Of a stretch of DNA of 32,000 nt, positions 5,257-29,891 are shown piece by piece. Origin of the DNA: Sulfolobus acidocaldarius DSM 639 (GTDB lineage Archaea > Thermoproteota > Thermoprotei_A > Sulfolobales > Sulfolobaceae). A program made the position numbers and the translations under genes. Each line of letters opens with the position of its first letter. Position 1 is the first letter of the stretch. Below the pieces are notes generated by a model, which did no database searches, was not told where the DNA came from, and saw nothing but the letters and a program-made list of their open reading frames with translations. Location: positions 2,040,001 through 2,072,000 of the forward strand of contig NC_007181.1 of the NCBI RefSeq assembly GCF_000012285.1, in the 5' to 3' direction.

Positions 5257-5283
5257 AAAGGAAAGTTTGATTTTTAGCTTTAG

Positions 5284-12557: not shown

Positions 12558-13550
12558 ATGATTAATTCAGAGTATGGAAATACTACCAAGGAAGGAAAAA
12601 TACTTCACAATAAGTTTAAATCAACTGTAGAGGGACTTGACTGGAACACATTTCCCATGAGACTATTTGAAATTGGAGAGAAATTCAGGTGGACTGCATA
12701 TGAGCTAGATTTTTCTAAGGATAGAGAGGACTGGAAAAAGTTAAAGCCATCTGACAGAACCCAAAACAAAATTATATCTTCTTATTTCCTAGCAGGAGAG
12801 GAGTGTGTAGCTAGGGATATATTACCCTTAGCCAACGCAATGGAGGAGTTGGGGTTAATTGAGGAAGCCCTGTATCTTACACAGTTTGCTAGAGACGAAG
12901 CTAATCATACTGTAGCATTTAGAAAGTGGTTTGAGAGTGTAGGTGAGACAGAAGGAATATATGACTTCACCTACAAAAATGAGCCGTATAGGAGATTGTT
13001 CTACGAAATAATACCAACAGATATGAGAAGGTTATATAATGATCCTTCACCTGAAAACATAGTAAGGGCAGTAGTTTCCTATAACTTTGTTGCAGAAGGA
13101 ATATTAGCAGAAACAGGATATTACGGTTATGTGAAGGGTTATGAGAAAATCTTACCTGCTTTACCTGGACTATATAAGATGGTTAAGTTAATCACCAGGG
13201 ATGAAGCTAGACATATTTCGTTTGGTGCATATGTGGCTGCACTAATGATATCAATGCATGGTGACAGTGTGTTAAATGAGTTCAATAGGTATTTCGGGCA
13301 GTTAACCCAAGAGATAGGATTTCCTTTAATCGAAGCTAATAGAAAGATCCAGTTATCATATGACTGGAAAGAAGAAGACAAAGGACCTCTCTACAAATAC
13401 TTCGTGGAAAGCGAAGAAGGTTTTCAAGACGTGATGAGTTTTGCCACTAGGATGTTCCAGCAGAGATATGCTGTAATAGAGAGAGCAGTGAAAATGAGAC
13501 CTGAACAAGTAAGGAGACTACATTTAAGAGATATAGGTATAGAAGAATAA
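12558..13550 (+). CDS. R2-like ligand-binding oxidase (R2lox)-type ferritin-like di-metal carboxylate protein, paralog A
   Basis: The ligand set is 'AGEEC' (E81), 'RDEANH' (E114/H117), 'VAEGILAETGY' (E180) and 'RDEARH' (E216/H219). Phe121 occupies the position of the RNR radical Tyr. V84 (E+3) and Y175 (E-5) are present. GGTGA lies at 12546..12550, 7 nt before the ATG. Confidence 0.75.
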   Translation: MINSEYGNTTKEGKILHNKFKSTVEGLDWNTFPMRLFEIGEKFRWTAYELDFSKDREDWKKLKPSDRTQNKIISSYFLAGEECVARDILPLANAMEELGLIEEALYLTQFARDEANHTVAFRKWFESVGETEGIYDFTYKNEPYRRLFYEIIPTDMRRLYNDPSPENIVRAVVSYNFVAEGILAETGYYGYVKGYEKILPALPGLYKMVKLITRDEARHISFGAYVAALMISMHGDSVLNEFNRYFGQLTQEIGFPLIEANRKIQLSYDWKEEDKGPLYKYFVESEEGFQDVMSFATRMFQQRYAVIERAVKMRPEQVRRLHLRDIGIEE

Positions 13551-14662: not shown

Positions 14663-16171
14663 TTACCTACGCCTTACCAGGAGTAAGACAACTATAACAA
14701 TGATAATAACGACCACTATAACGACGATAATGAATGGGCTAATTGAAGGACTGCTTGTTGTTTGAGGTTGTGAGAGACCACTTGATAAAGGCTCAGTACT
14801 ACTAACTGATGTGGAAGAGCTCTCTCCTACCTGTGATAATGAAGTTGAAACTTGACTGCTAGTGGTAGCTTGATTTGAGGACGTTGTCTGGGACACTGAA
14901 GTTGTACTTATAGACGTTGATGTATTGCTAGTACTTGTGGGGGTACTTTGAGAAGTTGTACTAGTAGGTATCACACCGTATTTAATTTCATACACGTTAA
15001 TAATTAACGAAGAGCCTTCTGTATATGCAGAATACGCCTGGTTTCCTATAATAATTAGCGGGTTGTTCAATGTTATGTTGAATATATATCCTGTCTTGGT
15101 ATTCACCAGGTATAACTTATTTCCGTTTGCTATTGAGATGTTTTGTGATACCATAAATGCCTGAACGTCATTGGAAATAAGGGGGAGCTGAGATACCGTT
15201 TTAATATTTTCATCATGAATAGAGACTAAATCTAGCGTCCCATTACCTTTACCAATTATATACAAGGATGAATTAATGACTCCCAGGGGAGTTGAGGATA
15301 ATGGAAATTGGATCGAACCTATTTCCATTAATGGTTTCGGTGAGGATAAATTAAGATCATATACATTTATCCCAGTGTTTTTCAGGTCAACGTACACTAA
15401 GTTATTTACACTGGCGATCCAATCTATCTCTTGGGGTAACGTAAAGTTGGCGATGACACTGAGAGATACTGGGTCTGATGGGTTAGTAGCTAAATAGGCA
15501 ATAAGTTGGTTTGAACCCTGATATGAGTTGCCTAGAATAATTACCTTGTAGTTATGGTTGATTGCTATTCCATATGCAGCTGTTGGCATTCCCGTTAAAG
15601 GGGTTAAAGTGGTATAGGGAGGATAGTAAAACCACCACTGATTGGGCTCATAAGAGATTAGGACCATGGAGAGATTAAATCCTTCATTGGGATAATTAAG
15701 TATAACATTTTCAGTATATGCGTCGCTAACCATTATGAATTGACCCGGTCTGTTGTACAACGACGAGTTCACGAAAGTCCCAGACTGTATATTGTTATAG
15801 TACTTGATCCCGTAATACATTCCGAGATAGTGACCGTCTGTAAATGAAGATACGCTAACTGTTGGCATCACCGGTGATGAAAGTGTGTAATTCAAAATTA
15901 GCTTCTCAGTATTCTCTGATGAAAGGTAAATATAGCTTATGTTGATATCATATGGAGAACTGCCCTTAATAGATACTGCAGGAATAACAAGACCATTGTT
16001 GAAATAAGTTATACCATAACTACTTGTAGAGTTCAAGGGAAATTGAAATGTGTATAATAGTTGAGGATAGTATCCCACTGCAGAATTGAAAACTGTATAC
16101 GGATAAATTGAGATTGCTAATAATGATATTGAAATTACCAACACTAACACTGATGATAATCTTTCTTTCAC
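14663..16171 (-). CDS. Surface protein with an N-terminal signal/anchor, a globular domain, a Ser/Thr-rich stalk and a C-terminal transmembrane anchor
   Basis: The N-terminal hydrophobic segment is 'VLVLVISISLLAISIY'. A Ser/Thr-rich stretch of about 80 aa ('TSTTSQSTPTSTSNTSTSISTTS...') follows the globular part. The protein ends in 'FIIVVIVVVIIIVIVVLLLVRRR'. There are many N-x-S/T sequons. The segment 'NNLVYVDLKNTGINVYDLNLSSPKP' resembles an LVIVD-type beta-propeller repeat (weak). Confidence 0.6.
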   Translation of the reverse strand: MKERLSSVLVLVISISLLAISIYPYTVFNSAVGYYPQLLYTFQFPLNSTSSYGITYFNNGLVIPAVSIKGSSPYDINISYIYLSSENTEKLILNYTLSSPVMPTVSVSSFTDGHYLGMYYGIKYYNNIQSGTFVNSSLYNRPGQFIMVSDAYTENVILNYPNEGFNLSMVLISYEPNQWWFYYPPYTTLTPLTGMPTAAYGIAINHNYKVIILGNSYQGSNQLIAYLATNPSDPVSLSVIANFTLPQEIDWIASVNNLVYVDLKNTGINVYDLNLSSPKPLMEIGSIQFPLSSTPLGVINSSLYIIGKGNGTLDLVSIHDENIKTVSQLPLISNDVQAFMVSQNISIANGNKLYLVNTKTGYIFNITLNNPLIIIGNQAYSAYTEGSSLIINVYEIKYGVIPTSTTSQSTPTSTSNTSTSISTTSVSQTTSSNQATTSSQVSTSLSQVGESSSTSVSSTEPLSSGLSQPQTTSSPSISPFIIVVIVVVIIIVIVVLLLVRRR

Positions 16172-16354: not shown

Positions 16355-18994
16355 CTATGGGAAGTAACTGTATGGTATATACAGTGACAGATATGGTACG
16401 TGTAATGATAGTCCAAGGGCATTAAGAGTCGAGTTGATTAATGTAAGCCTCGAGTTATAGACCGTTGTACTAGATAGATATACGTCAGACCCTGATATTG
16501 TTTGAGTAGAACCCGAGATCGTTGTACCTTGAGAATGCAACTGTGAATTACTTACGCCTATGGTATCACCATTTATGTTACTGTTCATCAAGTAGATCTG
16601 ACTACTGCTTATATTCTGCTGGGAGTTAGATATAGTTGATCCTGTGGCGTTTAATACAGAGCCAGATACGAACTGATTCGAGTTAGATATAGTTGAACTG
16701 ACTATATTTATTGTAGAACCTTGAGCGTTAATCGTAGACCCACTAATGGAGGAGCTTGTTAGGTATACATTCGAATTGGTTATGTATTGTTGTGAATTAG
16801 TTATTTGTGAATTGTAAGCCTGTAAAGTGGAGCCTGAGAGGTATATCTTGGAGCCTGATATTATTGTAACCACATTTAACAGTTTCGAGTTGGATATGTA
16901 AGCGTTAGTGTTTGTTAAGGTCTGCTTTGAGTTTGATACAGTGGTGGATCCTGAAATGTATAACGTGGAGCCCTGAATGTTCTGTGTAGTACTAGTTATT
17001 GTTGAACCTGTGGCGTTTAACGTGCTATCGCTTATGCTAACAGTAGACGAACTTATTGTCGAGCTAGACAAGGATATGAATGAGCCTCCACTTACGGTCT
17101 GAGTTACACCTGAAATGGTTGAGCCTGTAACATATAGTTTTGTACTGCTAAAGACAACATTTCCGCCATTTATCTGAGAGTTACTGAGGTAAATTGTCGA
17201 GCCCTGAATGTTCTGATTACTATTGGTTATTGTTGAACCTGAGGCAGACAGAGTAGACCCTACCATGTTTACGTTCGAAGAGCTTATTTGGGTATTAGTT
17301 AATGACACCATTGAGTTACGTATATTTTGTGTTACTCCCGTAATTGATGAACCACTCAGATAAAGATTAGTCCCTGTAATATTAGCTACTCCACTTCCAC
17401 TACTAGATAATTGCGAATTGGTCAAATAGACTGTTGACGATTGAATATTTTGGTTACAGTTTATTATGGAAGACCCTTGAGCGTTTAGTACAGAGTTGGA
17501 GAGGTAAATGTTTGTAGATGATATTGTGGAATCCACAACACTACTCTGAGAGTTTATGATTTGCATTAATGAGTTCACTATATTTGAGTTGATTATGCCT
17601 ATGTTTGAGTTTGACGTATACAGGTTTGAGTTAGATGACTTCAGAACTACTTGGGAGAATTTTGAATTACTTACATATGCTGTTGAGCCTATGAGGGACT
17701 GAGTTGAACTTAGAATAGTCACGTTATTGGCATTTATAACAGTGCTCTGGGCTGTTATAGTTGAACCAGATATAACAGTATTCTTTAGGTTAACTCCTGA
17801 ACTGTATATATTTTGAACGGAATTTTGTATAACAGTATTCACAGCACTTAAATTGGAGTTCTCAAGAGTTATCTGAGAGTTGTATATTTTCGAGTTAACT
17901 AGATCATTCACAGAATTAGTTATAGTAAAAGTGGAACCGTATAGGTCAGCAACAGCATTCTGAAGGTTAGAGTATATCACCTGAGCTGTGGACGAACTTA
18001 TATTCTGCACAACATTCATCAATGTTGAGTGATCAAGTTTTATGAAAGATTTAGACGCACCGACAAATGTATTAATGATGTTAGTCTTTTCCAAGTTTAG
18101 GGTAGAGGAATCATTGGCATACTGTTTTACGTTTTGTACAGTGGTACCTACTGAAGTTAGGGTGGTGTTTGACAAGTAGAGTGAGTCTCCATCTAGTAAC
18201 CCTCCGTTCGTTAATACTGACGAAGATATAATGCTGATGGAACTATTGTAGAAGTCCACATTATTTAGATAGTTTACAGTATTCCGCAACAGGAAATTAG
18301 ACATATAGAAATTATCATTTGTTAAGTTAAACGTGTCCTTAATATTTGGAACGTTAACTAGGTAAATATCACTAGACGTGATCTGTATGGAGTCATTGAA
18401 GTTAATTGTATTGGTCAAGTATAATTTTGAAGAGTAAACTTTCTGGTCTGACGAGTTTATTGAGGAACCGAACAGTTTTAACTGGCTATTATAAACCGTA
18501 AAAGCATCTCCTATTAATGATGTATTTTGTAGTGTTAAGTTGGATCTTTGGATGTTTTGTATTGAATTCCTTATTGAACTATAATACAAGAACAGACTAT
18601 CGTTGTTCAAGTTAAACTGTGAATTAGCAAAAACTGAATAGTTTGCAATGACTTTAGTGTTATTGAAAACACCCCTAGTAATTGATATTAATGAACCTAC
18701 TTGGACTGCAGTAGAGTTACTAATCCCAAAGCCATCTGCGAATATACTAGAGTTGTAGATGTAAATTTTCACATTTATAAAACTGCTATTGTATGTGTAG
18801 AGTATTGAATTATAAACATATAGTATAGCATTAGTTAACGTTGAGTTGTATAGCCTTTGGACTGAGTTCTTTATGTAGAGTATGGTAATTGGTGTGTTTT
18901 TGGGAGTTTGAGCAGTGGTCATTGTTCCGGCAGATACTAGAGTAATTAGTAATATAAGTCCTATAATTAAACCTAATTTATTTATTTTGTTCAT
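16355..18994 (-). CDS. Large secreted Ser/Asn/Thr-rich repeat protein, beta-solenoid-like, almost free of charged residues
   Basis: An 879-codon open frame carries the signal peptide 'MNKINKLGLIIGLILLITLVSAGT'. The C-terminal two-thirds is built from modules of about 19/38 aa such as 'GSTITNSNQNIQGSTIYLSNSQINGGNVVFSSTKLYVT'. There are dozens of N-x-S/T sequons and no C-terminal TM segment. Confidence 0.6.
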   Translation of the reverse strand: MNKINKLGLIIGLILLITLVSAGTMTTAQTPKNTPITILYIKNSVQRLYNSTLTNAILYVYNSILYTYNSSFINVKIYIYNSSIFADGFGISNSTAVQVGSLISITRGVFNNTKVIANYSVFANSQFNLNNDSLFLYYSSIRNSIQNIQRSNLTLQNTSLIGDAFTVYNSQLKLFGSSINSSDQKVYSSKLYLTNTINFNDSIQITSSDIYLVNVPNIKDTFNLTNDNFYMSNFLLRNTVNYLNNVDFYNSSISIISSSVLTNGGLLDGDSLYLSNTTLTSVGTTVQNVKQYANDSSTLNLEKTNIINTFVGASKSFIKLDHSTLMNVVQNISSSTAQVIYSNLQNAVADLYGSTFTITNSVNDLVNSKIYNSQITLENSNLSAVNTVIQNSVQNIYSSGVNLKNTVISGSTITAQSTVINANNVTILSSTQSLIGSTAYVSNSKFSQVVLKSSNSNLYTSNSNIGIINSNIVNSLMQIINSQSSVVDSTISSTNIYLSNSVLNAQGSSIINCNQNIQSSTVYLTNSQLSSSGSGVANITGTNLYLSGSSITGVTQNIRNSMVSLTNTQISSSNVNMVGSTLSASGSTITNSNQNIQGSTIYLSNSQINGGNVVFSSTKLYVTGSTISGVTQTVSGGSFISLSSSTISSSTVSISDSTLNATGSTITSTTQNIQGSTLYISGSTTVSNSKQTLTNTNAYISNSKLLNVVTIISGSKIYLSGSTLQAYNSQITNSQQYITNSNVYLTSSSISGSTINAQGSTINIVSSTISNSNQFVSGSVLNATGSTISNSQQNISSSQIYLMNSNINGDTIGVSNSQLHSQGTTISGSTQTISGSDVYLSSTTVYNSRLTLINSTLNALGLSLHVPYLSLYIPYSYFP
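16417..17557 (-). repeat. Intragenic degenerate tandem repeats (coding) within the 879-aa ORF; boundaries approximate
   Basis: The exact 17-mer gagccctgaatgttctg occurs at 16968 and 17199. The exact 16-mer gttattgttgaacctg occurs at 16995 and 17226. Both pairs are 231 bp (77 codons) apart. cctgtggcgtttaa occurs at 16641 and 17007, 366 bp (122 codons) apart. Confidence 0.7.
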
Positions 18995-19229: not shown

Positions 19230-19847
19230 TTAAACTTGAATTCTTGCATTTATTTTCCTTGCAACGTCTGCGAATATAAGAGCAGTATTAGTATATTTTC
19301 CTAGTTCTGACAGGGAGCCCTTCTTAATTTTTATTATACCACCTAACAGCGCCAATGATGCGTCCAGTTTTCCCTCAATTATTTTAACCCAATCTTGATA
19401 TCTAGCCTCGAGTATGACATCTGCACTTACATTTAGTATATCTACATAGAATTCGGTTGCGACACATTTTCCCTTATCTAGAATCAATTTTACAGCTCCA
19501 GAGCTCGAATTATTAATATATCCGTTCTTAATATCTTCTGGTAATTTCCTTCCTGTAATATTTTCCAATGCCTCCATAACAATTTTCCTATCTTCAGGTG
19601 GTACTGTTGGTGACAGTAACTCAGTTGCCTGCCTAATCAAGTCTTCATTTAGAACACCTAGAGAAATAGCTACACCCTTTACTACAGCAGCCCTTACATT
19701 CTCTGGCGCTTCTACTCCGACAAACAGAATTGAGTTCCATTTAATGTTCCTTGCTCCCTCTAAAAATTGCTTATTTTCATTTAATGACCTACAAAACTCT
19801 TGAGCCCATTCCTTGCTGGGAAACAAAAGTTTATTCTCCTCTCCCAT
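19230..19847 (-). CDS. SCP2 (sterol-carrier-protein-2)-like lipid-binding domain protein, paralog A
   Basis: The C-terminal 'YQDWVKIIEGKLDASLALLGGIIKIKKGSLSELGKY' matches the SCP2 signature (W..i..Gkl....A.m.Gklki.G.....l). It is homologous along its length to the ORF at 23298..23792, apart from an insertion of about 40 aa. Confidence 0.65.
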   Translation of the reverse strand: MGEENKLLFPSKEWAQEFCRSLNENKQFLEGARNIKWNSILFVGVEAPENVRAAVVKGVAISLGVLNEDLIRQATELLSPTVPPEDRKIVMEALENITGRKLPEDIKNGYINNSSSGAVKLILDKGKCVATEFYVDILNVSADVILEARYQDWVKIIEGKLDASLALLGGIIKIKKGSLSELGKYTNTALIFADVARKINARIQV

Positions 19848-19996: not shown

Positions 19997-21196
19997 ATGG
20001 TTTTACCATTTAACACATTGGAAGTGTACAATGTAAAGGTCTCAGAGAATCATGAACTCTTCAGAAAGGCAGTGAGAGAGTTCATGGAAAGAGATGTAGC
20101 GCCAATTGTGGAAAAAGGTGAAAAGGAAGGAAAAGTTCCTGAGAACGTCTTAGAGAAAGCTAAGGAATTAGGATTGTTTGGAATAAGCGTTCCTCAGGAA
20201 TACGGAGGACAAAGTGGAGACATGTTAATGAGCACAATAGCCGTAGAGGAAATGTCGAGGGTCTGGCCTTCCTTTACGGCGAGAGTAACAGTAGGGAACC
20301 TGTTCATGACTCCAATACTACTATTTGGTAGTGAGGAGCAGAGGAAGAAATATGTTACACCTGTTGCGAGGGGAGATAAGGTAGCTGCATTTGCAAATAC
20401 TGAACCACAAGCAGGAAGTGATGTTGCAGGAATACAGTCCACAGCAAAGAAAGTAGATGGTGGATATGTTTTAAACGCAAGGAAGATATTCATCACCAAT
20501 GGTGGTATTGCTGATTACTATGTTGTCACTGCAAGGACTTCACCACCTGAACCAAATGCGAGGTGGAAGGGAATATCAATGTTCATAGTAGAGAGAGAAT
20601 GGAAAGGAGTAAAAGTACTAAACAGAATTGAGACCCTAGGTTTAAGGGCATCTAATACTGCTGAGCTAGCATTTGAGGAAGTTTATGTTCCCCAAGAAAA
20701 CTTAGTAGGAGAGGAAGGCTCTGCATTTAAGTACGCAATGACGACCTTTGATGTTTCGAGAGTTGGTGTTGCTGGACAAGCCTTAGGTGTTGCCCAAGCT
20801 GCATTGGAGAAGATGACAAACTACTCAGTGCAGAGAAGTGCTTTCGGCTCTCCACTTTTAGGATTCCAGATGGTTCAAGAGAAAATAGCAGAAACATTAA
20901 CAGAAGTAAACGCAGCAAGACTATTAACATACTGGGCTGCGTCTCTCATAGACCAACGCAAAGTAGACGAGGGAATAGTTGCCGCATCTATGGCTAAGTA
21001 TTTTGCAACTGAGGTTGCAGAGAGGGCTGCCATAAGGGCTATAACTGTACACGGTGGATATGGTGTAGCAACTTCGACTGGTGTCGAGAGACTACTTAGA
21101 GACGTTGAGGTCATGAAGATTTATGAAGGGGCAAACGATATACAGAAATTAGTCGTATTAAAGGAGACAGCTAGAAGACTTCTAAAAGTGCTTTAA
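19997..21196 (+). CDS. Acyl-CoA dehydrogenase (FAD-dependent)
   Basis: The 399-aa size is typical for ACADs. 'AFANTEPQAGSD' and 'FITNGG' are present, and the C-terminal 'IYEGANDIQ' holds the catalytic Glu (YEGTxEIQ-type). Confidence 0.9.
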   Translation: MVLPFNTLEVYNVKVSENHELFRKAVREFMERDVAPIVEKGEKEGKVPENVLEKAKELGLFGISVPQEYGGQSGDMLMSTIAVEEMSRVWPSFTARVTVGNLFMTPILLFGSEEQRKKYVTPVARGDKVAAFANTEPQAGSDVAGIQSTAKKVDGGYVLNARKIFITNGGIADYYVVTARTSPPEPNARWKGISMFIVEREWKGVKVLNRIETLGLRASNTAELAFEEVYVPQENLVGEEGSAFKYAMTTFDVSRVGVAGQALGVAQAALEKMTNYSVQRSAFGSPLLGFQMVQEKIAETLTEVNAARLLTYWAASLIDQRKVDEGIVAASMAKYFATEVAERAAIRAITVHGGYGVATSTGVERLLRDVEVMKIYEGANDIQKLVVLKETARRLLKVL

Positions 21197-21220
21197 ACGC
21201 TTTATATACCAATTCCTCAG

Positions 21221-21226
21221 TTTTTT
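21221..21226 (+). terminator. Oligo-T tract downstream of the acyl-CoA dehydrogenase; candidate archaeal terminator
   Basis: A T6 run starts about 25 nt after the stop at 21196, within a pyrimidine-rich stretch (cagttttttattcctatcttcttttt). Confidence 0.3.
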
Positions 21227-21331
21227 ATTCCTATCTTCTTTTTAATTTATTGACGAAAAAAGCAACTTTTTAAAGGAGTTAAAGTTATTAGCCATTTTAC
21301 CATCCTTAAATCGAAAAGAGGTAGAATAAGT

Positions 21332-23251
21332 GTGAAAGTAGTTGTAATAGGTTCTGGAGAGATGGGACATGGAATAGCTGAAGTAATGGCGATATATAAA
21401 AACGAAGTTACCCTAGTGGATATAAAAGACGAGATACTGGACAAGGCAATCTCTAAGATTAGGGAGAGTTTAGATAGGTTAAAGAAGAGGGGCTCAATTG
21501 AAGAGGAGCCCGAGGATATACTAAAGAGGATAACAAAGTCAATAAACCTTGAAGAAGCAGTTAAAGACGCTGATCTTGTAATAGAGGCAGTTCCTGAAAT
21601 AGTCGACCTAAAACAGAACATTTTCAAGCGACTAGATCAATTCACAAAGCCAGATGCTATTCTCGCTACTAATACGTCAAATATTAGGATTAGTGAGATC
21701 TCTAAATTTGTGAATAAGAAGGATAGAGTAGTTGGAATGCACTTCTTCAACCCACCGGTACTTATGCAGTTGGTTGAAATAATAAAAGGACCAGATACCA
21801 GTCCTGAAGTGGTTCAGAAGCTCTACGAAATAACTAAACAGATCGGTAAAACACCTGTAATCGTGAATAAAGATACTCCAGGATTTATAGTGAATAGGAT
21901 CAATGCAGCTGAAAGCTTATTCATCTGCCTAGTTTTACAAAAGGGTATTAATTATGAGGAAGTGGACGCTTACTTCAGATCTCTAGGTCTACCCATGGGA
22001 CCTTATGAGCTAATGGATTATGTTGGATTAGACATTGTAGCCCATAGCCTAGAATATTTTGCAAAAGAAATATCTCCTGAATATGGGAAATGTACAAAGA
22101 TTAAAGAGATGGTAAATAACGGACTGTTGGGAAGGAAAAGTGGAAGAGGATTTTACGATTGGACTAAGGGGAGACCCCAGATTAATGCTAAGCAAAATCC
22201 AATAATTGATGTGAATGACTTGCTAGCAATAGACATAAATGAAGCCTCAAAATTACTCGAGGATAATGTCGCTACACCAAATGACATTGAAACGGCAGTA
22301 AAGTTAGGTATGAACAGACCCTTCGGTCCAATAACTGTAGCTAAAAGTGCAGATTTAAATGATGTGAAGAGCAGACTTGAAAGAATATCAAGTGAATACG
22401 GAATTACAATTTTCCAACCAACGGACTCCATAAAGACAGGTAAACTCAAGGAACTACTTGAGGGCGAGAAAAAGGAGGAGAAGAAGGAATTTGAAACACT
22501 CAACGTGAGCAAGGAAGGAAAGGTTGCTATTGTTAAGCTGAATAGACCTAAGTTGAACTTGATAAATTACACCCTGCTGGACGAACTGGATAGATTACTG
22601 ACAGAACTCTGGAATGACAGATCAATTAATGTGATCTTGATCACTGGAGAAGGACAAAACTTCTCAGGCGGTGCAGAGCTCTCTGCCCCTATCACAGATC
22701 AAGTACAATTCCTTGAGTTAGTGAGGAAAGGAGAGAGGACTTTCAAGAGGTTAACTGAGATTCCTAAGATCGTCATTGCATTTGTTAAAGGCTATGCTCT
22801 AGGGGGAGGCTTTGAGTTATCTTCCTACTGTGATCTACGAATAGCAACTGAGAATGCTGTGTTTGGTTTCCCTGAGACTGGTTTGGGTTTAGTACCAGCA
22901 TGGGGAGGTACTCAGCGACTGCCTAAATTAATTGGAATTTCCAGGGCTATGTATCTAATACTTACTGCCCAAAGAATATCCGCAAAAGAAGCACTAGAGT
23001 ATGGTTTGGTTAATAAGATAGTTAAGGACGAAAATGAAGCATTAGAGTTTGCAAAGGACCTGTCTGAGAGAATAGCACCTATTTCTGCCATGTTGGCTAA
23101 AAGGTTAATTAACAGGGGTAGTGAGGTACCAATTGATGTAGGTCTAGAGATGGAATCCATAGCGGGAGGATTACTATTTACAACTGAGGATTTAAAGGAG
23201 GGAATTGTAGCCTTCTTCTCAAAGAGAAAACCAGAGTTTAAAGGAAAATAG
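21332..23251 (+). CDS. Bifunctional 3-hydroxyacyl-CoA dehydrogenase (N-terminal) / enoyl-CoA hydratase (C-terminal), paralog B
   Basis: The GTG start is preceded by GAGGT. Motifs are the 'VVVIGSGEMGHGIAE' Rossmann fold, 'ITGEGQNFSGGAEL', 'GGGFELSSYCD' and 'FGFPETGLGLVPAWGGTQRL' (crotonase). Confidence 0.85.
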   Translation: MKVVVIGSGEMGHGIAEVMAIYKNEVTLVDIKDEILDKAISKIRESLDRLKKRGSIEEEPEDILKRITKSINLEEAVKDADLVIEAVPEIVDLKQNIFKRLDQFTKPDAILATNTSNIRISEISKFVNKKDRVVGMHFFNPPVLMQLVEIIKGPDTSPEVVQKLYEITKQIGKTPVIVNKDTPGFIVNRINAAESLFICLVLQKGINYEEVDAYFRSLGLPMGPYELMDYVGLDIVAHSLEYFAKEISPEYGKCTKIKEMVNNGLLGRKSGRGFYDWTKGRPQINAKQNPIIDVNDLLAIDINEASKLLEDNVATPNDIETAVKLGMNRPFGPITVAKSADLNDVKSRLERISSEYGITIFQPTDSIKTGKLKELLEGEKKEEKKEFETLNVSKEGKVAIVKLNRPKLNLINYTLLDELDRLLTELWNDRSINVILITGEGQNFSGGAELSAPITDQVQFLELVRKGERTFKRLTEIPKIVIAFVKGYALGGGFELSSYCDLRIATENAVFGFPETGLGLVPAWGGTQRLPKLIGISRAMYLILTAQRISAKEALEYGLVNKIVKDENEALEFAKDLSERIAPISAMLAKRLINRGSEVPIDVGLEMESIAGGLLFTTEDLKEGIVAFFSKRKPEFKGK

Positions 23252-23297
23252 AACTTTTTTGATAATTTTTTAGATAAAAAATAAGAAAATAAAAACC

Positions 23298-23792
23298 TTA
23301 AGCTAATATCTTGGACTTTATTTTCCTGCTCATGTTCGACATTATAACTGCAGCATTGGTGTATCTAGCCAACTCTGTTAAACTACCTTTCTTAATCTTT
23401 ATTGAACCTCCCAATAACGCGACAGTAACGTCTAATTTACCTTGGATGATCTTTAACCAAGTATCGTAAGGAGCCTCTAATATCAGTGAACCCACAACCT
23501 TTGACATGTCCGTATGAAACTCCGTGCCTAAACATCTACCCTCTTTAATGTTTAGTTTTATTGCACCAGCAGTTGAGTTAAAGTCTACCGAATCAGCTTT
23601 AGCTTCTCCCTTCTTGTACATCTCTATTAGTGTCGCTCTTACTTTTTCAGGAACATTTGTCGATACTAGAACCACAGAGTCCCATGGTGCAGTCTTAGAG
23701 GCTTCATAGTACTCTTTACTTCCGTTAAGTAGTTTACACCACTCATCTGCCCATTCCTTACTTGGAAATAGATACTCTTGTGTTTGAGACAT
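23298..23792 (-). CDS. SCP2-like lipid-binding domain protein, paralog B
   Basis: 'YDTWLKIIQGKLDVTVALLGGSIKIKKGSLTELARY' matches the SCP2 signature. The N-terminus 'LFPSKEWADEWCKLLN' parallels paralog A ('LFPSKEWAQEFCRSLN'). I prefer the ATG at 23792 (MSQTQEY) over the track start at 23840. Confidence 0.65.
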   Translation of the reverse strand: MSQTQEYLFPSKEWADEWCKLLNGSKEYYEASKTAPWDSVVLVSTNVPEKVRATLIEMYKKGEAKADSVDFNSTAGAIKLNIKEGRCLGTEFHTDMSKVVGSLILEAPYDTWLKIIQGKLDVTVALLGGSIKIKKGSLTELARYTNAAVIMSNMSRKIKSKILA

Positions 23793-23981
23793 GTTCAAGA
23801 TATATAAATACATATTCTTATAAAAAATTTGTCCTAACATTAATTAATCAATACAAGAAAATTAGGTGGACTGGAGTAAAGACAGAAATAAAGGAAATAT
23901 TCCTTAATTTTTATTGACTAATAAATATTAAACGATTTTTCAAAAAAATTTTTATATCAGGATTTTAAAGATATATCGTTA

Positions 23982-23990
23982 GAGGAGGTG
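23982..23990 (+). promoter_or_regulatory. Strong Shine-Dalgarno sequence (GAGGAGGTG) for the R2lox-B gene
   Basis: GAGGAGGTG ends 8 nt upstream of the TTG start at 23999. TATA-like tracts lie further upstream (about 23949-23977). Confidence 0.5.
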
Positions 23991-23998
23991 CGTTTTTA

Positions 23999-25036
23999 TT
24001 GGATAAACCAGTAGAAATAACCCCAGACGGTAAGGTAGTTAGGAAAAGCTACTCTTCAGTAAAGAAGGGAATAGATTGGAACTCTTACCCCATGAGATTA
24101 TGGGCAAAATCTAATGAACTATTCTGGTCTCCGTTACAATTTAAGGAACTAATACAACAGGACAAGCAAGATTGGGAGACAATGAGTGAATCAGAAAGGG
24201 AGATATCTGAATACATTGCAACAGCGTTTTCCGCAGGAGAGGAGGCAGTATCTAGATATTTAGCGGAGCTAGTAATAGCTTTAGATGAGTTAGGATACAC
24301 TGAAGAAGTATTATTCCTTAATCAATTCCAGCAGGAGGAAACCAGACATACAGATGCTTTTAGGAGGTGGATGGACTCCATAGGTATGGATAAGGACACT
24401 GAGAAATGGACCACAGAAATTAATCCATCTTACTATGAGCTTTTCTACGTTGCATTACCCTCAGCCGCTTATGGAGTTAAGGCAAATCCATCTCCAGAGA
24501 GTATATTAAGATTTACTGCTACATATATGTTCTCGATAGAGGGTATAGCTGCAGAAACTGGATTTTACTTCTGGAGAACTATGTGGGAAAGGGGTAGACA
24601 TCTAAAAGGTATTTACGAGATTGTGAAAAGAGTAGCCGCTGATGAGTCTAGACATTTAGCGTTTGGGACTTACCTTACAACTATGCTAATAGGTGAAGAC
24701 CAATCCCTATACGATAAATTCTTAGAGTACTTCAATTATGCAGGTGGTTTAGCTGTAAGGCTGATTGGAACAATAGTGGAGCAACAGGTAAACAAATGGG
24801 AACCATACAAGGAGAAATGGGGAAGATATTTCGAATGGGTATATAAGGAGAACGGTCTAGGTTCACTGGTAGATTACGCTGCAAAAATGGTCCAGCACAG
24901 GCTATTCTACGTAAATAGGCTAAGGAACGCTAATAGAGAGAAGCTAAGATACATGCCATTAAACGAAGCTGCTCCAGTGATAGAGAACTTCGATACTGTA
25001 GAGAAATACCTTACTCCTCAGTATGATCCCGAATAG
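23999..25036 (+). CDS. R2-like ligand-binding oxidase (R2lox)-type di-metal carboxylate protein, paralog B
   Basis: TTG start. The ligand set is 'AGEEA' (E81), 'QEETRH' (E114/H117), 'SIEGIAAETGF' (E181) and 'ADESRH' (E216/H219). Phe121 sits at the radical-Tyr position. V84 and Y176 (E-5) are present. By eye it is only distantly related to paralog A. Confidence 0.75.
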   Translation: MDKPVEITPDGKVVRKSYSSVKKGIDWNSYPMRLWAKSNELFWSPLQFKELIQQDKQDWETMSESEREISEYIATAFSAGEEAVSRYLAELVIALDELGYTEEVLFLNQFQQEETRHTDAFRRWMDSIGMDKDTEKWTTEINPSYYELFYVALPSAAYGVKANPSPESILRFTATYMFSIEGIAAETGFYFWRTMWERGRHLKGIYEIVKRVAADESRHLAFGTYLTTMLIGEDQSLYDKFLEYFNYAGGLAVRLIGTIVEQQVNKWEPYKEKWGRYFEWVYKENGLGSLVDYAAKMVQHRLFYVNRLRNANREKLRYMPLNEAAPVIENFDTVEKYLTPQYDPE

Positions 25037-25116
25037 AAAAATTCATTTTTATAATAGAATTTTTTCTCTTAAACCTTAAGTAATATTTATTACCATAACA
25101 AATTATACTTAATTTC

Positions 25117-25809
25117 ATGCTAAAAAGAATCTTCAAAATGAGTACTGAAGATTCTCCTATAAGTGAAGTAAATCCATTAAAATTGCTTCCACCAATTACA
25201 GAGGAGAAATATAATGACTATGATGGAATAGGGCTCTTGAGTATTAAGAGGTTCTCATTACTTTACACCATTTCATTTTTTGTAATCATAGCAGGATTAT
25301 TAGGAACATTGACATCAATTCCAGCCTTTCCCACACCCTTATTTTTCATAATACCTGTGGTCTCATTAATCTTCGTTATAATTACGGCTATAGGATTTCT
25401 CCTAGGTACAGCGTCAATAAACGTCCTGAGTATAGGATTGACAATCTTAGGCAAGATAAAGAAGGATTATAATAGCAGATTAGTGGAGTTTTCGATCTTA
25501 ACTCCATTAGTAACAGGTATAGGTCTATTAGTCTTCTTAATACTGGGCTTGTTAGGATTAAACCCAGTCCCAGTGTTAGAACTAAATATTGTAATGGCTA
25601 TAATAGGAATTGCTATAGCTGTATTCTTCATAGGAATGATAGCAGCGGCAATAAAGATGTGGAAGCTGGGGAAAAGGTACGAGAGCTGGGGTTTGAGAAT
25701 AGGTGGAATTTTCCTTTTCCTTCTCCCTCCTTTAGGTGGAATATTAACATACATTTTTTCAAGTAGAGCAGCTAAGAAGGTAAAAAGAACCGATTGCTTC
25801 CTTGCTTAG
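25117..25809 (+). CDS. Polytopic integral membrane protein, function unknown
   Basis: There are five to six hydrophobic segments, for example 'ISFFVIIAGLLGTLTSI', 'LFFIIPVVSLIFVIITAIGFLLG', 'LVTGIGLLVFLILGLLGL', 'IVMAIIGIAIAVFFIGMIAAAI' and 'IGGIFLFLLPPLGGILTYIF'. A TATA-like box lies about 30 nt upstream of 25117. An alternative ATG lies at 25138. Confidence 0.6.
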   Translation: MLKRIFKMSTEDSPISEVNPLKLLPPITEEKYNDYDGIGLLSIKRFSLLYTISFFVIIAGLLGTLTSIPAFPTPLFFIIPVVSLIFVIITAIGFLLGTASINVLSIGLTILGKIKKDYNSRLVEFSILTPLVTGIGLLVFLILGLLGLNPVPVLELNIVMAIIGIAIAVFFIGMIAAAIKMWKLGKRYESWGLRIGGIFLFLLPPLGGILTYIFSSRAAKKVKRTDCFLA

Positions 25810-25813
25810 GTGA
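25808..25813 (+). promoter_or_regulatory. Shine-Dalgarno sequence (AGGTGA) for the CoxG-like gene; indicates an operon-internal start
   Basis: AGGTGA lies 6 nt upstream of the ATG at 25820 and overlaps the stop of the membrane-protein gene. Confidence 0.5.
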
Positions 25814-25819
25814 TAGAAG

Positions 25820-26245
25820 ATGTCGTTAAATAGGATATGTGGAAGGTTCTCTGTACTGGATCTGGTTAAAACATTGCAGTTCATTGGAGATCAGAACAAC
25901 TTCGTGGGCTGTATACCAAATATAGTTAGTGCGAATGAGAACACATTTAAAGCGAAAGTAAAGGCATTGGGGCTACCATTAACCGTGAAGGGAGAACTTT
26001 ATAAGTACGAAATATCCCCAGAGACGTTAATACTCACAGTTGGACTACGAGTCAAAACTACAGGTGCAGTTATAGATATAATTACAAGGAGTAAGGTTAA
26101 AGAAGATGGCAGTCAAGTCATATGGGATACTCAATATAATATCGCGGGACCCCTTAAAATACTTTTAAAGCCTTTGTTAGAGAGTGTGACAGAGCAGACA
26201 GTGGTGGACACTATAGAGTGTATTAAGCTGAGAACTACTTCTTAA
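25820..26245 (+). CDS. CoxG-like / SRPBCC-superfamily hydrophobic-ligand-binding protein, paralog A
   Basis: The size (141 aa) and N-terminal pattern 'GRFSVLDLVKTLQFIGDQNNFVGCIPNI' resemble the CoxG family ('f.v..p.e.v..fl.d...la.ciPg'). It is homologous to 29481..29891. Confidence 0.55.
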   Translation: MSLNRICGRFSVLDLVKTLQFIGDQNNFVGCIPNIVSANENTFKAKVKALGLPLTVKGELYKYEISPETLILTVGLRVKTTGAVIDIITRSKVKEDGSQVIWDTQYNIAGPLKILLKPLLESVTEQTVVDTIECIKLRTTS

Positions 26246-26294
26246 GTTAGTCTTTTGAGAAAAATATATATGTTTGTTTTTTAAATATAAGTTA

Positions 26295-27353
26295 ATGAAA
26301 GCCGCAATATTTAAGGGAGCAAACGCACCGCTTCAATTAACGGATATCCCTAAACCGTCCCCAGGTGAAGGAGAGATCCTAATTAGAGTAGCATCTACAG
26401 GTGTTTGCCATTCCGATATACACCACATGAAAGGTGAGCTACTTGGATTTATGCCACCCGAGGGGTTTATTCTTGGACATGAAATTTCAGGATGGGTAGA
26501 AGATTTTGGACCGAATGTAACAAACCCCTATGGACTACAAAAAGGAGACCCTGTAATAGTATCATGGATTGTACCATGTGGAAAGTGTAGATATTGTGCG
26601 TCTGGTAAGGAAAACTATTGTAACAACGTAATGATGAAGATGCCGGGTTTGATCGGAATAAATGGGGGTCATGCTGAATACACTTCAGTCCCTGAAATAG
26701 CTGTAATACCGGCAAGAGAAATAAAAGATGTGATTGCCTCTTCACCTGTTTCATGTGCATATGGTACAGCTTACGGAGCACTTAAGACTGCTGGTGCTTC
26801 TGCAGGTCAAAGTGTAGTTGTAATAGGTACAGGTGGTGTAGGTTCCGCTGCGATTCAGTTAGCCAGTGTAATGGGGCTATATCCAATAATTGCAGTGGAT
26901 GTTGTAGACAGTAAATTAGCGAAAGTAAAAGAATTGGGAGCGACTCATACTGTTAATCCTAACAAGGAAGACCCTGTTGGCAAGATAACTGAGATATTAC
27001 CAGAAGGAGCGGATATAGTTTATGAGACTAAACCCAATCCAGATTTGCAAATAGCCTTTAACGTCGTGAACAAGTCGGGAACAATGGTTGTTACCGGACT
27101 AGGGAATGCCACATCAAGTACAATTAACTTAATGACTAACCTCTTTGTGGGAAGGGGACTTAAAGTTGTGGGAAGTTTAGGTTATAGACCCAGGATTGAC
27201 TTACCAGAGTTGGTAAGGATGGTAGCATCGGGTAAGCTCGACGTTAAAAAACTTGTGACTCACGTGTATAGACCAGATGAGATAAACACTGCATACGAAA
27301 ATCTTGAGAAAGGACTGCATTTAAGAGCAATAATTGACTGGACTAAGCTGTAG
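26295..27353 (+). CDS. Zinc-dependent alcohol dehydrogenase (MDR family)
   Basis: 'GVCHSDIHHMKGE' and 'GHEISGWV' carry catalytic Zn ligands. 'CGKCRYCASGKENYC' is a structural Zn loop and 'VIGTGGVGSAAIQLA' is GxGxxG. I prefer the ATG at 26295 (MKAAIFKG), which has a TATA-like box about 28 nt upstream. Confidence 0.85.
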   Translation: MKAAIFKGANAPLQLTDIPKPSPGEGEILIRVASTGVCHSDIHHMKGELLGFMPPEGFILGHEISGWVEDFGPNVTNPYGLQKGDPVIVSWIVPCGKCRYCASGKENYCNNVMMKMPGLIGINGGHAEYTSVPEIAVIPAREIKDVIASSPVSCAYGTAYGALKTAGASAGQSVVVIGTGGVGSAAIQLASVMGLYPIIAVDVVDSKLAKVKELGATHTVNPNKEDPVGKITEILPEGADIVYETKPNPDLQIAFNVVNKSGTMVVTGLGNATSSTINLMTNLFVGRGLKVVGSLGYRPRIDLPELVRMVASGKLDVKKLVTHVYRPDEINTAYENLEKGLHLRAIIDWTKL

Positions 27354-27742: not shown

Positions 27743-29371
27743 ATGATGAGTTCCGGGTACTATAAATATCAGTTAACTATAGATAAATTTCTAGATAGTG
27801 GGGAGACGGTCTTTCCAACAAGAGAAATAGTTTACACAGATAAGAGAAGATATACATTTAAAAAATTTGCAGAGTCAGCTAAAATCTTAGCAAATGCCCT
27901 AAAGAAAATCGGTGTCAAAAAAGGTGATATAGTAGGTGTTATTGACTGGGATACAGATGTGTACATGCACCTATACTATGCTGTACCAATGATAGGAGCT
28001 GTACTGCACACAGTGAATCTACGATACCCTCCAGAACTAATTATAAAGACAATGCTACACGCTGAAGACAAATGGGTGATTATAAGGGACGATCTAATAG
28101 GACTAGTCGAGGATATTAAGAACTTTAACCCCAACATAAGGTTCATCATATATAATGACGACAAGGAGAAAATAAAAGTAGATGACAAGACCATAGATTT
28201 CTGGGACTTATTACAGGGAGAACCTAAGTATGATCCAGATGAAGAAGGACTAAAAGAAGATATGATGGCAACATTAATGTACACTTCAGGAACCACAGGT
28301 AATCCAAAGGGAGTGTGGTTCACCCATAGAGACCTAGTGCTTCATGCAATGGCTATGGGTACCATATCAAGGGCACCTCCAGTTGAGTTGACAACCAGAG
28401 ATGTTGTGATGAGCCTTGTACCAATGTTCCACGTGCATTCGTGGGGATTCCCATATGTTGCCTTAGCAAGTGGTCTTAAGTATGTGCTACCTGGCGTTTA
28501 CAACCCAGCAACCCAGTTGAAGTTGATAGCCAATGAGGGAGTAACTTTCTCGGCAATGGTTCCAACAATATTGTTCATGATACTAGCTCAACCAGATATT
28601 GACGATTATAAACCGTATCTAAAGAACTGGAAAGTTGCTATAGGCGGAGAAGCGCTTCCTGAGGGTTTAGCAAGGAAGGCTAGAGAATACGGTATCAAGT
28701 TGTATTCAGGTTACGGTTTGACTGAGACTTGTCCAGTTTTAACTGTGGCATACCATAATTCCATTGTGGAAAGTTTCGATGAAGAGAAGAAATTCGAAAT
28801 ACAGCTGAGTGCAGGAGTTCCAATACCAGGAGTAAAGCTAAGGATAGTGGATGAAGAGGGTAAAGATGTCCCTAGAGGAAAGATAGGAGAAATAGTAGTT
28901 AGAGCTCCATGGACAACAAGAGAATACTACAAAGACCCTGAAAAAACAGCCCAATTATGGAGAGGTGGTTGGTTACATACAGGCGATCTGGGATACATCG
29001 ACGAATATGGTTACTTACATTTAGTGGACAGGGAGAAAGATGCAATAAAGAGCGGTGGTGAGTTCATACCATCACTCCTATTGGAGACAGTCATATCCCT
29101 ACACCCAAGTGTGGCTGAGGTTGCAGTTGTAGGTATTAGACATGAAAAGTGGGGCGAAAGACCTGTTGCATTCATAGTACCTAACGGTCAATTTGATGAG
29201 GTAGAAATGAGGAAGTTCCTGATGAAAAAGGTGGAGGAAGGTAAGATACAGAAGTGGTGGATACCAGACAGGTTCTTCGTTGTGGAAGACATACCAAAGA
29301 CCTCAACTATGAAGGCTGATAAGAAATTGCTGAGAGAAATGGCGAGTAAAGAGCTCCAAAAACAAAAATAG
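27743..29371 (+). CDS. Medium/long-chain fatty-acid--CoA ligase (AMP-forming), paralog B
   Basis: Motifs present: 'MYTSGTTGNPKGVWFTH' P-loop, 'VPMFHVHSWG', 'GYGLTET', 'WLHTGD', 'IKSGGEFIPSLLLE' and 'PKTSTMKADK'. Confidence 0.9.
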   Translation: MMSSGYYKYQLTIDKFLDSGETVFPTREIVYTDKRRYTFKKFAESAKILANALKKIGVKKGDIVGVIDWDTDVYMHLYYAVPMIGAVLHTVNLRYPPELIIKTMLHAEDKWVIIRDDLIGLVEDIKNFNPNIRFIIYNDDKEKIKVDDKTIDFWDLLQGEPKYDPDEEGLKEDMMATLMYTSGTTGNPKGVWFTHRDLVLHAMAMGTISRAPPVELTTRDVVMSLVPMFHVHSWGFPYVALASGLKYVLPGVYNPATQLKLIANEGVTFSAMVPTILFMILAQPDIDDYKPYLKNWKVAIGGEALPEGLARKAREYGIKLYSGYGLTETCPVLTVAYHNSIVESFDEEKKFEIQLSAGVPIPGVKLRIVDEEGKDVPRGKIGEIVVRAPWTTREYYKDPEKTAQLWRGGWLHTGDLGYIDEYGYLHLVDREKDAIKSGGEFIPSLLLETVISLHPSVAEVAVVGIRHEKWGERPVAFIVPNGQFDEVEMRKFLMKKVEEGKIQKWWIPDRFFVVEDIPKTSTMKADKKLLREMASKELQKQK

Positions 29372-29480
29372 AGGAATTCACTATGTCTCAATTTTCTCCT
29401 AAACTAGACTTAGAATGTAGGTGTATTAATTTAGGAAAAACATATATATTAAGATTAGTAGAAAAATAAGGTGAGAATAT

Positions 29481-29891
29481 ATGCCTCAAAAGTTAAGTGG
29501 GAAATTTAAAGTGAAAGATCCAGCAAAGGCAGTTCAGTTCGCATCCAACTATTCAAACTTCATATCCTGCATACCTACTGCCAGGGACATAAAGGACAAG
29601 AAATTCAAACTAGATGCTACTGTAGGTGCAATGAAGGTCACTGTTGATGGTGAATTAATCGACTATAAGATAACAGAGAACGGATATGTGGCTACAGTAC
29701 AAATAAGAGGTCCTGGTGTCACAACAACCACAACCACCAAGAGTACATTAAATGGAGATGAAGTTACGTGGGAGGCTGAGTATAAGAATGAGGGCTCTAT
29801 GGTAGCGATGTTAGGAAACCTCCTCGATACTTCAGTTCAAACCATGATGAACCAGACTGCAGAGTGTATTAAAAACAAACTTAATAGTTAA
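29481..29891 (+). CDS. CoxG-like / SRPBCC-superfamily hydrophobic-ligand-binding protein, paralog B
   Basis: 'GKFKVKDPAKAVQFASNYSNFISCIPT' parallels 25820..26245. AGGTGA lies at 29469..29474, 6 nt upstream of the ATG. Confidence 0.55.
   Translation: MPQKLSGKFKVKDPAKAVQFASNYSNFISCIPTARDIKDKKFKLDATVGAMKVTVDGELIDYKITENGYVATVQIRGPGVTTTTTTKSTLNGDEVTWEAEYKNEGSMVAMLGNLLDTSVQTMMNQTAECIKNKLNS

Follow-up and report, generated by a model that had tools for sequence, protein, structure and literature searches.

R2lox proteins are manganese/iron (Mn/Fe) enzymes, and the structural literature on them explicitly calls for a partner protein. Here, we analyze one R2lox gene, Saci_2220 (R2lox-B), and its neighbors in a 32 000-nucleotide (nt) stretch of the Sulfolobus acidocaldarius DSM 639 chromosome (NC_007181.1, positions 2,040,001-2,072,000), referred to below as the window. 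Four R2lox paralogues are already on record for this archaeon (PMC9314684), and several described systems are close enough to serve as a reference. In Geobacillus kaustophilus, the gk2769-gk2782 cluster combines R2lox with genes for an alcohol dehydrogenase (ADH), an aldehyde dehydrogenase, an acyl-CoA synthetase (ACS) and a membrane protein, and its GkR2loxI has been proposed to be an alkane monooxygenase (PMC10867098). Haloarchaeal R2lox genes cluster with sterol-carrier genes (PMC9314684), and a haloarchaeal R2lox is induced by hexadecane. S. acidocaldarius itself has a paralogous island, the FadR-regulated cluster Saci_1103-1126, which codes for acyl-CoA dehydrogenase (ACAD), 3-hydroxyacyl-CoA dehydrogenase (HCDH)/enoyl-CoA hydratase (ECH), a hypothetical protein, the R2lox Saci_1112, the MDR (medium-chain dehydrogenase/reductase) protein Saci_1115, esterases and an ACS (PMC6449355). 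CoxG proteins, which belong to the SRPBCC proteins, form another point of reference. In Mycobacterium smegmatis, CoxG is held at the membrane by a C-terminal helix of its own and takes menaquinone out of the membrane for the molybdenum carbon monoxide dehydrogenase (Mo-CODH). Saci_1119 and Saci_2031, which are homologues of CoxG in S. acidocaldarius, are membrane-associated and recruit soluble glycerol-3-phosphate dehydrogenases (G3PDHs) to the membrane (PMC11962113).

A preliminary description of the window had read three consecutive genes, coding for R2lox-B, a polytopic membrane protein (Saci_2221) and a CoxG-like protein (Saci_2223), as a single operon and a single lipid-oxidation module. 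On balance, we consider a different arrangement probable. It consists of a unit of R2lox-B, the SCP2-like protein Saci_2219 and the zinc-dependent ADH Saci_2224, which lies beside a separate membrane-CoxG pair. Together they would make up three adjacent, separable transcription units within a co-regulated fatty-acid island. This shifts attention from the membrane and SRPBCC neighbors of R2lox-B to the SCP2-like carrier and the alcohol dehydrogenase.

R2lox-B and its carrier and dehydrogenase neighbors

Saci_2220 matches the NCBIfam equivalog model NF006200 over its full length with 476.7 bits (cutoff 194), while its scores against two models of ribonucleotide reductase (RNR) beta subunits are 53.5 and 30.1 bits (cutoffs 237 and 309). 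The metal ligands E81, E114, H117, E181, E216 and H219 align with E68, E101, H104, E167, E202 and H205 of MtR2lox. The residues of the predicted ether cross-link, V84 and Y176, are present as well. Saci_2220 is thus a bona fide R2lox with intact ligands and is predicted to be a catalytically intact Mn/Fe oxidase, in agreement with the identity proposed for it earlier. It is one of the two S. acidocaldarius R2lox proteins without a solved structure. The other is Saci_2212, the second R2lox of the window, and each of them is ~50% identical to 6QRZ and 7QBK, which are also the closest PDB matches of Saci_2220.

The expression of the paralogues has been interpreted differently. In a 2024 RNA-seq study of nutrient excess, Saci_2212 and saci_2188 were among the most upregulated genes (log2 fold change of 4.0 and 2.8, respectively) and were read as RNR beta subunits that reflect a need for DNA repair. 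Because both are R2lox proteins, that reading probably rests on misannotation. For saci_2219, too, RNA-seq has shown upregulation under nutrient excess.

Gene order in related Sulfolobaceae separates R2lox-B from the membrane-CoxG pair. In three loci (L005, L006 and L007), the genes run on the same strand from SCP2-like to R2lox-B, Zn-ADH of the MDR type, ACAD and ACS, with nothing between R2lox and ADH. R2lox-B orthologues in the two related lineages are 70-72% identical to the S. acidocaldarius protein. Orthologues of Saci_2219 (68-73% identity) directly precede R2lox-B on the same strand in all three loci, and those of Saci_2224 (74-75% identity) directly follow it in L005 and L007. The membrane-CoxG pair of the two lineages lies ~9 kb from R2lox-B. 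In S. acidocaldarius, the pair sits between R2lox-B and the ADH of R2lox-B, and this is the only organism in which the trio of R2lox, membrane protein and CoxG was found; the adjacency is not kept in the relatives, and the island is visibly rearranged between lineages.

To look at R2lox neighborhoods more broadly, we scanned one genome per GTDB species, which yielded 71 R2lox loci, none of them haloarchaeal. SCP2 ranks first among the Pfam families of 120 ORFs neighboring R2lox, and SRPBCC is absent from the 25 families (each with at least two members) listed for these ORFs. According to an SCP2-like hidden Markov model (HMM), 8 of the 71 loci have an SCP2-like ORF that adjoins R2lox and shares its strand. 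These come from Sulfolobaceae, another Thermoproteota metagenome-assembled genome (MAG), Bacillota, Marinimicrobia, Ignavibacteriae and Longimicrobiales. The matches are concentrated near R2lox, eight out of ten being located within the 1.2 kb that account for 14% of flank DNA (binomial P ~6e-6). Moreover, in a Longimicrobiales MAG (L072, DATKCF010000031.1) a single ORF joins an N-terminal SCP2-like region to an R2lox whose ligand motifs are intact. This fusion constitutes Rosetta-stone evidence for a predicted functional link between the two proteins. In each of the 71 loci, neither BLASTX nor family HMMs detected a homologue of CoxG or of the membrane family at up to 5 kb from R2lox.

Taken at the level of sequence and gene order, the SCP2-like protein, encoded here on the divergent strand as Saci_2219, is the evolutionarily recurrent carrier partner of R2lox. 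The preliminary description had tied R2lox to hydrophobic-ligand carriers in a fatty-acid island. The tie itself stands, but the carrier is Saci_2219, which lies outside the stretch considered at the time and on the other strand. Saci_2219 is 37% identical to Saci_2216, a protein that NCBI names as an SCP2 domain protein; compared with Saci_2219, Saci_2216 has an insertion of ~40 residues. A further SCP2-like gene is found in L008, where an R2lox-A orthologue is followed by SCP2-like and then by MDR. The opposite strand upstream of this R2lox-A orthologue carries a short sequence that shares 61% identity with R2lox-B residues 263-316 and could be either a gene fragment or a divergent neighboring paralogue near the contig end.

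In relatives, a gene for an Nramp-family (Mn/Fe) transporter is located divergently upstream of the SCP2-like and R2lox-B unit. The transporter is a suggestive neighbor for an Mn/Fe enzyme; S. acidocaldarius has no Nramp gene at the corresponding position.

The membrane-CoxG pair

Saci_2221 has about five hydrophobic helices, as expected from its earlier assignment as a polytopic membrane protein. Its score against DUF973 (PF06157), 23.6 bits, is under the cutoff of 26.4, while its homologue P0019 exceeds the cutoff with 30.1 bits. An exhaustive HMMER search of 1.84 billion representative proteins returned only one other cluster at 50% identity; this search and the R2lox locus scan are the basis of all our statements on distribution. 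With MAG and metagenome contigs counted, the family is represented in three Sulfolobaceae lineages, whose members are 30-64% identical to each other and share 52 invariant alignment columns. Metagenome scans with the alignments of the membrane family and of CoxG produced no matches. Saci_2221 is a fast-evolving, lineage-restricted protein that appears to be a borderline relative of DUF973.

The assignment of Saci_2223 to CoxG/SRPBCC, made previously from the sequence, is borne out by both profile and structure prediction. The protein scores 40.7 bits against Pfam COXG (PF06240, cutoff 22.2), and its AlphaFold2 model (pLDDT, the predicted local distance difference test, of 87.2) has a helix-grip fold with the order beta-alpha-alpha-beta6-alpha. 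The best Foldseek matches are 2ns9 (A. pernix APE2225) and 8uds (M. smegmatis CoxG), and identity to characterised CoxGs is 17-21%. No transmembrane (TM) or hydrophobic segment, C-terminal anchor helix or signal peptide was found in its 141 residues, and the protein is predicted to be cytoplasmic.

The two genes travel together. CoxG is encoded directly 3' of the membrane gene in all three lineages that have the membrane family (S. acidocaldarius and the types L003/L004 and L007/L078), and the spacing at the junction varies between a gap of 10-11 nt and an overlap of 8-13 nt. In L003, L007 and L078, the junction bears a Shine-Dalgarno (SD) sequence of the GGTGA/GGTGG type, as does the S. acidocaldarius junction (AGGTGA). 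CoxG_B orthologues in the relatives are 52-70% identical. Judging from these junctions, translational coupling is predicted for Saci_2221 and Saci_2223, which together make up a two-gene cassette restricted to these lineages.

Two further genes were observed near the pair in relatives. A conserved Cys-/Trp-rich protein of 142-143 residues, without a Pfam match, is encoded after CoxG in L003 and L078 but missing from the S. acidocaldarius window. The other gene, in L007 and L078, is a degenerate R2lox-like gene, likewise without a Pfam match, 33% identical to R2lox-B. Its ligands are altered (E to K, H to Q and E to D; GKEAL and EEFKQ motifs), as is the cross-link pair (Tyr to Phe, Val to Leu). 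It also lacks a counterpart in the S. acidocaldarius window. From these substitutions, its product may be a non-catalytic lipid-binding derivative.

Operon layout and co-regulation

The physical layout given in the preliminary description is correct. The three same-strand ORFs are present, R2lox-B has a strong SD sequence, 80 nt separate R2lox-B from the ATG at 25117 of the membrane gene (101 nt if the RefSeq ATG at 25138 is used), and CoxG starts after a 10-nt gap with an SD of its own. The neighboring genes also confirm that Saci_2220-2223 are surrounded by a beta-oxidation island. The single operon is a different matter. In the published gene table, Saci_2220 belongs to operon Op1348, Saci_2221 and Saci_2223 to Op1349, and Saci_2224 to Op1350. 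The 80-nt AT-rich spacer between R2lox-B and the membrane gene has T-runs and TATA-like elements, and together with the split in the operon column it is consistent with a predicted terminator/promoter boundary. Similarly, the region between the divergent Saci_2219 and Saci_2220 is a putative promoter region. Thus, three operons in the published table, the position of R2lox-B directly before Zn-ADH in relatives, with the pair elsewhere, and the empty neighborhoods of all 71 loci speak against a three-gene operon. The co-occurrence of R2lox, the membrane family and SRPBCC, by which the preliminary description had proposed to judge its own reading, is not conserved.

The genes are nevertheless expressed in concert. 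In a compendium of 95 RNA-seq experiments, Saci_2208 and Saci_2211-2226 fall into one 'fatty-acid-related' iModulon (PMC8578740), with weights of 0.204 for Saci_2220 (the highest), 0.196 for Saci_2219, 0.1875 for Saci_2221, 0.1878 for Saci_2223 and 0.161 for Saci_2224. This co-regulation spans the entire island and therefore cannot discriminate between different readings of the role of the pair.

Regulatory signals common to these genes were sought in several ways. The idea that a conserved promoter precedes the membrane gene or the ADH was dropped, local alignments of S. acidocaldarius with its relatives being no better than shuffled sequences (P 0.18-0.8); the comparison with shuffles was significant for L003 versus L007 only. 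No shared dyad motif was found in 16 upstream regions of the iModulon. The only FadR-like motifs of the window, at 1518, 17344 and 30886, all lie outside promoters. A scan for sigma-70 promoters and hairpin terminators gave counts at or under the shuffle expectation, although the underlying models are bacterial and not informative for an archaeon. For comparison, at least 17 transcription units have been reported for the 23 genes of the paralogous FadR cluster.

Proposed functions and alternative explanations

Established here or in the literature are what the genes encode, the conservation of the metal ligands, the patterns of synteny, the co-regulation and the precedents for CoxG; on top of them we infer the biochemical steps and the contact between CoxG and the membrane protein. 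In the first unit, Saci_2219 would deliver a long-chain aliphatic substrate to the ligand channel of R2lox-B, which would hydroxylate or oxidise it with O2. Saci_2224 would oxidise the resulting alcohol, and the acyl-CoA synthetase together with the beta-oxidation enzymes of the island would take the product onward. In the second unit, the anchor-less CoxG Saci_2223 would dock on the polytopic Saci_2221 and either recruit a soluble enzyme to the membrane or carry a hydrophobic molecule, a lipid or caldariellaquinone, between such enzymes and the membrane; for each of the two roles there is a demonstrated example among other CoxG proteins. Saci_2221 is put forward as the dock because Saci_2223 has no anchor and is always encoded behind a polytopic membrane protein. 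R2lox-B is a candidate client enzyme of the pair in S. acidocaldarius only. The sequence of carrier delivery, R2lox hydroxylation and ADH oxidation amounts to a concrete, testable hypothesis in a genetically tractable archaeon.

A number of points weigh against the arrangement that we favor. The synteny of R2lox-B and of the pair is informed by two related lineages only, all of them Sulfolobaceae. In these relatives, the pair lies 3 kb downstream of the degenerate R2lox-like gene, on the same strand, and because of this gene some association between the pair and the R2lox family persists. The method behind the operon column is unstated in the main text of the source, and read-through from R2lox-B is possible. 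An MDR gene is found within 1.5 kb of R2lox in 30 of the 71 loci, including both Sulfolobaceae paralogues and Laceyella, but most are from Pseudonocardia, and because of this dominance the count is not phylogenetically independent. The Sulfolobaceae SCP2-like proteins fall under the Pfam SCP2 threshold; Saci_2216 and Saci_2219 therefore represent a divergent SCP2-like subfamily of Sulfolobaceae. The structure model of Saci_2221, built from two sequences, is of low confidence (pLDDT 62). Finally, the evidence for alkane hydroxylation in Geobacillus comes from crude lysates and consists of small effects.

Among the alternatives, the original proposal deserves attention first. According to it, R2lox-B, the membrane protein and CoxG are one operon and one physical module that brings R2lox to a membrane lipid substrate. 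The same strand and tight spacing of the three genes, their near-identical iModulon weights and the membrane or protein partner predicted by the R2lox literature all agree with this proposal. So does the precedent of S. acidocaldarius CoxG homologues, which recruit the enzyme encoded just upstream in their cluster. Even the R2lox-like gene found upstream of the pair in relatives could be counted in its favor; however, that gene lacks the metal ligands and is parted from the pair by a gene for a secreted protein. Considering also that the R2lox-B orthologues of relatives occur without the pair, that CoxG or membrane homologues are found near R2lox in 0 of 71 loci, and that both the published operons and the T-runs of the 80-nt spacer divide the three genes, we regard a single module as unlikely. 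We are just as doubtful about a quinone shuttle, in which CoxG would extract caldariellaquinone or caldariellaquinol and couple a soluble redox enzyme (FAD-containing acyl-CoA dehydrogenase or R2lox) to the respiratory chain. This idea draws on the Foldseek match to 8uds, the M. smegmatis CoxG with an SRPBCC domain that extracts menaquinone, and on the quinone-reducing flavoenzymes served by S. acidocaldarius CoxG homologues; in addition, an ACAD gene shares the iModulon, and R2lox needs reducing equivalents. On the other hand, the resemblance to characterised CoxGs is low (17-21% identity), a ligand cannot be deduced from sequence, the window has no gene for G3PDH or CODH/XOF, and in S. acidocaldarius quinone reduction by G3PDH did not require CoxG.

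The pair might instead be tied functionally to two cell-envelope proteins, the surface glycoprotein Saci_2214 and Saci_2215, a repeat protein that is secreted, its place next to R2lox-B in S. acidocaldarius being a functionally meaningless by-product of rearrangement. In L003, L004, L007 and L078, the genes are indeed arranged in the order unk879 (a secreted repeat protein of the Saci_2215 type), membrane protein and CoxG; Saci_2214 and Saci_2215 have signal peptides and share the iModulon; and the island has been rearranged between lineages. Yet CoxG lacks a signal peptide, its predicted location being the cytoplasm, the pair of S. acidocaldarius is 6 kb away from Saci_2215 and on the opposite strand, and co-regulation of the whole island does not discriminate. 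We consider this explanation slightly less probable than the two preceding ones. The most speculative suggestion, to which we give very little credence, is a 'split CoxG', in which Saci_2221 would replace the anchor helix and gate the extraction of caldariellaquinol or a lipid substrate, and would be placed behind R2lox-B in order to serve it. If true, it would supply the long-sought physiological substrate of R2lox or its missing electron donor.

For the arrangement of an R2lox-B/SCP2-like/ADH unit beside a separate pair, the claim of novelty has to be narrower than the one made previously. The preliminary description had presented a candidate novel system of no described function, a view outdated by the reports of four R2lox paralogues and sterol-carrier clustering (PMC9314684), of the Geobacillus cluster (PMC10867098) and of the iModulon (PMC8578740). 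The literature already covers the genes, the paralogy of R2lox, the block under co-regulation and the link between R2lox and lipid carriers. New may be the quantified partnership of R2lox with SCP2-like proteins, including the fusion, and a possible 'split' CoxG with a dedicated membrane partner.

Coordinates and other features of the island

The coordinates of the features discussed are compiled in Table 1. The zinc motifs of Saci_2224 (CHSD, GHE and CxxCxxCx7C) make up a complete set. A spacer of 110 nt separates the gene for the acyl-CoA synthetase Saci_2225 from the downstream gene for Saci_2226, an anchor-less member of the CoxG family 31% identical to Saci_2223. If the G3PDH-CoxG operons are taken as a model, Saci_2226 could bring the synthetase to the membrane. 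Of the two envelope proteins, neither of which has a Pfam match, Saci_2214 combines a signal peptide with a Ser/Thr-rich stalk and with a TM anchor at the C terminus. In Saci_2215, dozens of Asn/Ser/Thr-rich repeats follow the signal peptide, and the homologue of Saci_2215 directly precedes the pair in relatives. In another S. acidocaldarius strain (L002, CP013695.1), no gene is called at the position of the ACAD Saci_2217 (~4881..6080), which could reflect a pseudogene or an annotation gap.

Table 1. Features of the S. acidocaldarius window and of related loci. Coordinates are those of the window unless a locus is named; adding 2,040,000 converts window coordinates into those of the published gene table.
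Feature	Coordinates	Strand	Description
Saci_2212	12558..13550	+	Second R2lox of the window, R2lox paralogue
Saci_2214, Saci_2215	14663..16171, 16355..18994	-	Co-regulated with fatty-acid genes
Saci_2216	19230..19847	-	SCP2 domain protein (NCBI name)
Saci_2219	23298..23792	-	SCP2-like lipid carrier, 164 aa from RefSeq start; mechanical ORF reaches 23840
Intergenic region Saci_2219/Saci_2220	23793..23998		206 nt, AT-rich, divergent; TATA-like TTTATA at 23951-23956
SD of R2lox-B	23982-23990	+	GAGGAGGTG, 8 nt 5' of TTG start
Saci_2220 (R2lox-B)	23999..25036	+	345 aa, TTG start, accession AAY81506
Spacer Saci_2220/Saci_2221	25037..25116		80 nt, AT-rich; T-runs 25046-25050 and 25060-25065; TATA-like 25048-25053 and 25084-25090
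Saci_2221	25117..25809	+	Polytopic membrane protein, 230 aa; RefSeq start 25138
SD of CoxG	25808-25813	+	AGGTGA, overlaps TAG stop of Saci_2221
Saci_2223	25820..26245	+	CoxG-family SRPBCC, 141 aa, soluble domain alone
Saci_2224	26295..27353	+	Zn-dependent MDR alcohol dehydrogenase; mechanical ORF from TTG 26274; ADH_N and ADH_zinc_N
Saci_2225 and Saci_2226	27743..29891	+	Acyl-CoA synthetase and second CoxG-family protein, by domain matches; co-regulated block
Saci_2226	29481..29891	+	CoxG family
SCP2-like/R2lox fusion	L072 9428..10843	+	Longimicrobiales MAG
Nramp-family transporter	L005 93..1151	-	
Nramp-family transporter	L006 923..2095	-	
Nramp-family transporter	L007 8052..9227	-	
Nramp-family transporter	L078 1686..2861	+	
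Degenerate R2lox-like gene	L007 4401..5411	-	
Degenerate R2lox-like gene	L078 5502..6512	+	
Cys-/Trp-rich protein	L003 3216..3644	+	
Cys-/Trp-rich protein	L078 10551..10982	+	
Stretch similar to R2lox-B	L008 283..444	-	

Comparison with known systems

Saci_2220 shares with the structurally characterized R2lox proteins (MtR2lox, 3EE4; GkR2loxI, 4HR0; SaR2loxI, 6QRZ; SaR2loxII, 7QBK) the six Mn/Fe ligands, the Val/Tyr pair and the ferritin-like R2 fold family. Its identity to the two solved S. acidocaldarius proteins is only about 50%.

The FadR-regulated island is paralogous to the locus. The window region 19997..27353 follows the same order as Saci_1108-1115, namely, ACAD, HCDH/ECH, a small hypothetical or SCP2-like protein, R2lox and MDR. 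However, the window is 1.1 Mb away, has no FadR gene and no reported FadR chromatin immunoprecipitation peak, and belongs to a different iModulon. The possibility that the window is the cluster Saci_1103-1126 itself, with a 205-aa ORF as FadR, was rejected, as the gene order differs and the 205-aa ORF is SCP2-like. The NADPH enoyl-CoA reductase Saci_1115 is the MDR protein of the FadR island, and a further enzyme of this kind has been predicted to exist. Since Saci_2224 has the full Zn-ADH motifs, it may or may not be that enzyme.

In the S. acidocaldarius locus as in the Geobacillus cluster, R2lox is accompanied by genes for beta-oxidation enzymes, an ADH, an ACS and a small membrane protein. 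The differences are that no aldehyde dehydrogenase was found in the window, that the Geobacillus cluster has neither an SCP2 nor a CoxG carrier, and that P21, its membrane protein, is according to the published description a beta-barrel that has a helix at the N terminus, whereas Saci_2221 is helical and DUF973-like. The evidence for activity of the Geobacillus system is weak. In haloarchaea, compared here through the literature, R2lox is likewise linked to small lipid carriers, the counterparts in the window being two SCP2-like proteins (Saci_2219 and Saci_2216) and two SRPBCC proteins (Saci_2223 and Saci_2226); in contrast to the haloarchaeal clusters, there is no ferredoxin beside R2lox-B. 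The proposed SCP2-like/R2lox/ADH unit fits the Geobacillus cluster as well as the haloarchaeal clustering with sterol carriers and the response to hexadecane.

The second unit is best compared with CoxG anchors and shuttles (8UDS, Saci_1119 and Saci_2031), with which Saci_2223 shares the Pfam family and the helix-grip fold. Unlike M. smegmatis CoxG, Saci_2223 has no membrane helix of its own. It also departs from known CoxG systems in that the product of the gene directly upstream is not a client oxidoreductase such as CODH/XOF or G3PDH, which are absent from the window, but a polytopic membrane protein. The membrane-CoxG pair may be a variant of the CoxG systems for membrane recruitment or ligand shuttling that have recently been shown in S. 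acidocaldarius.

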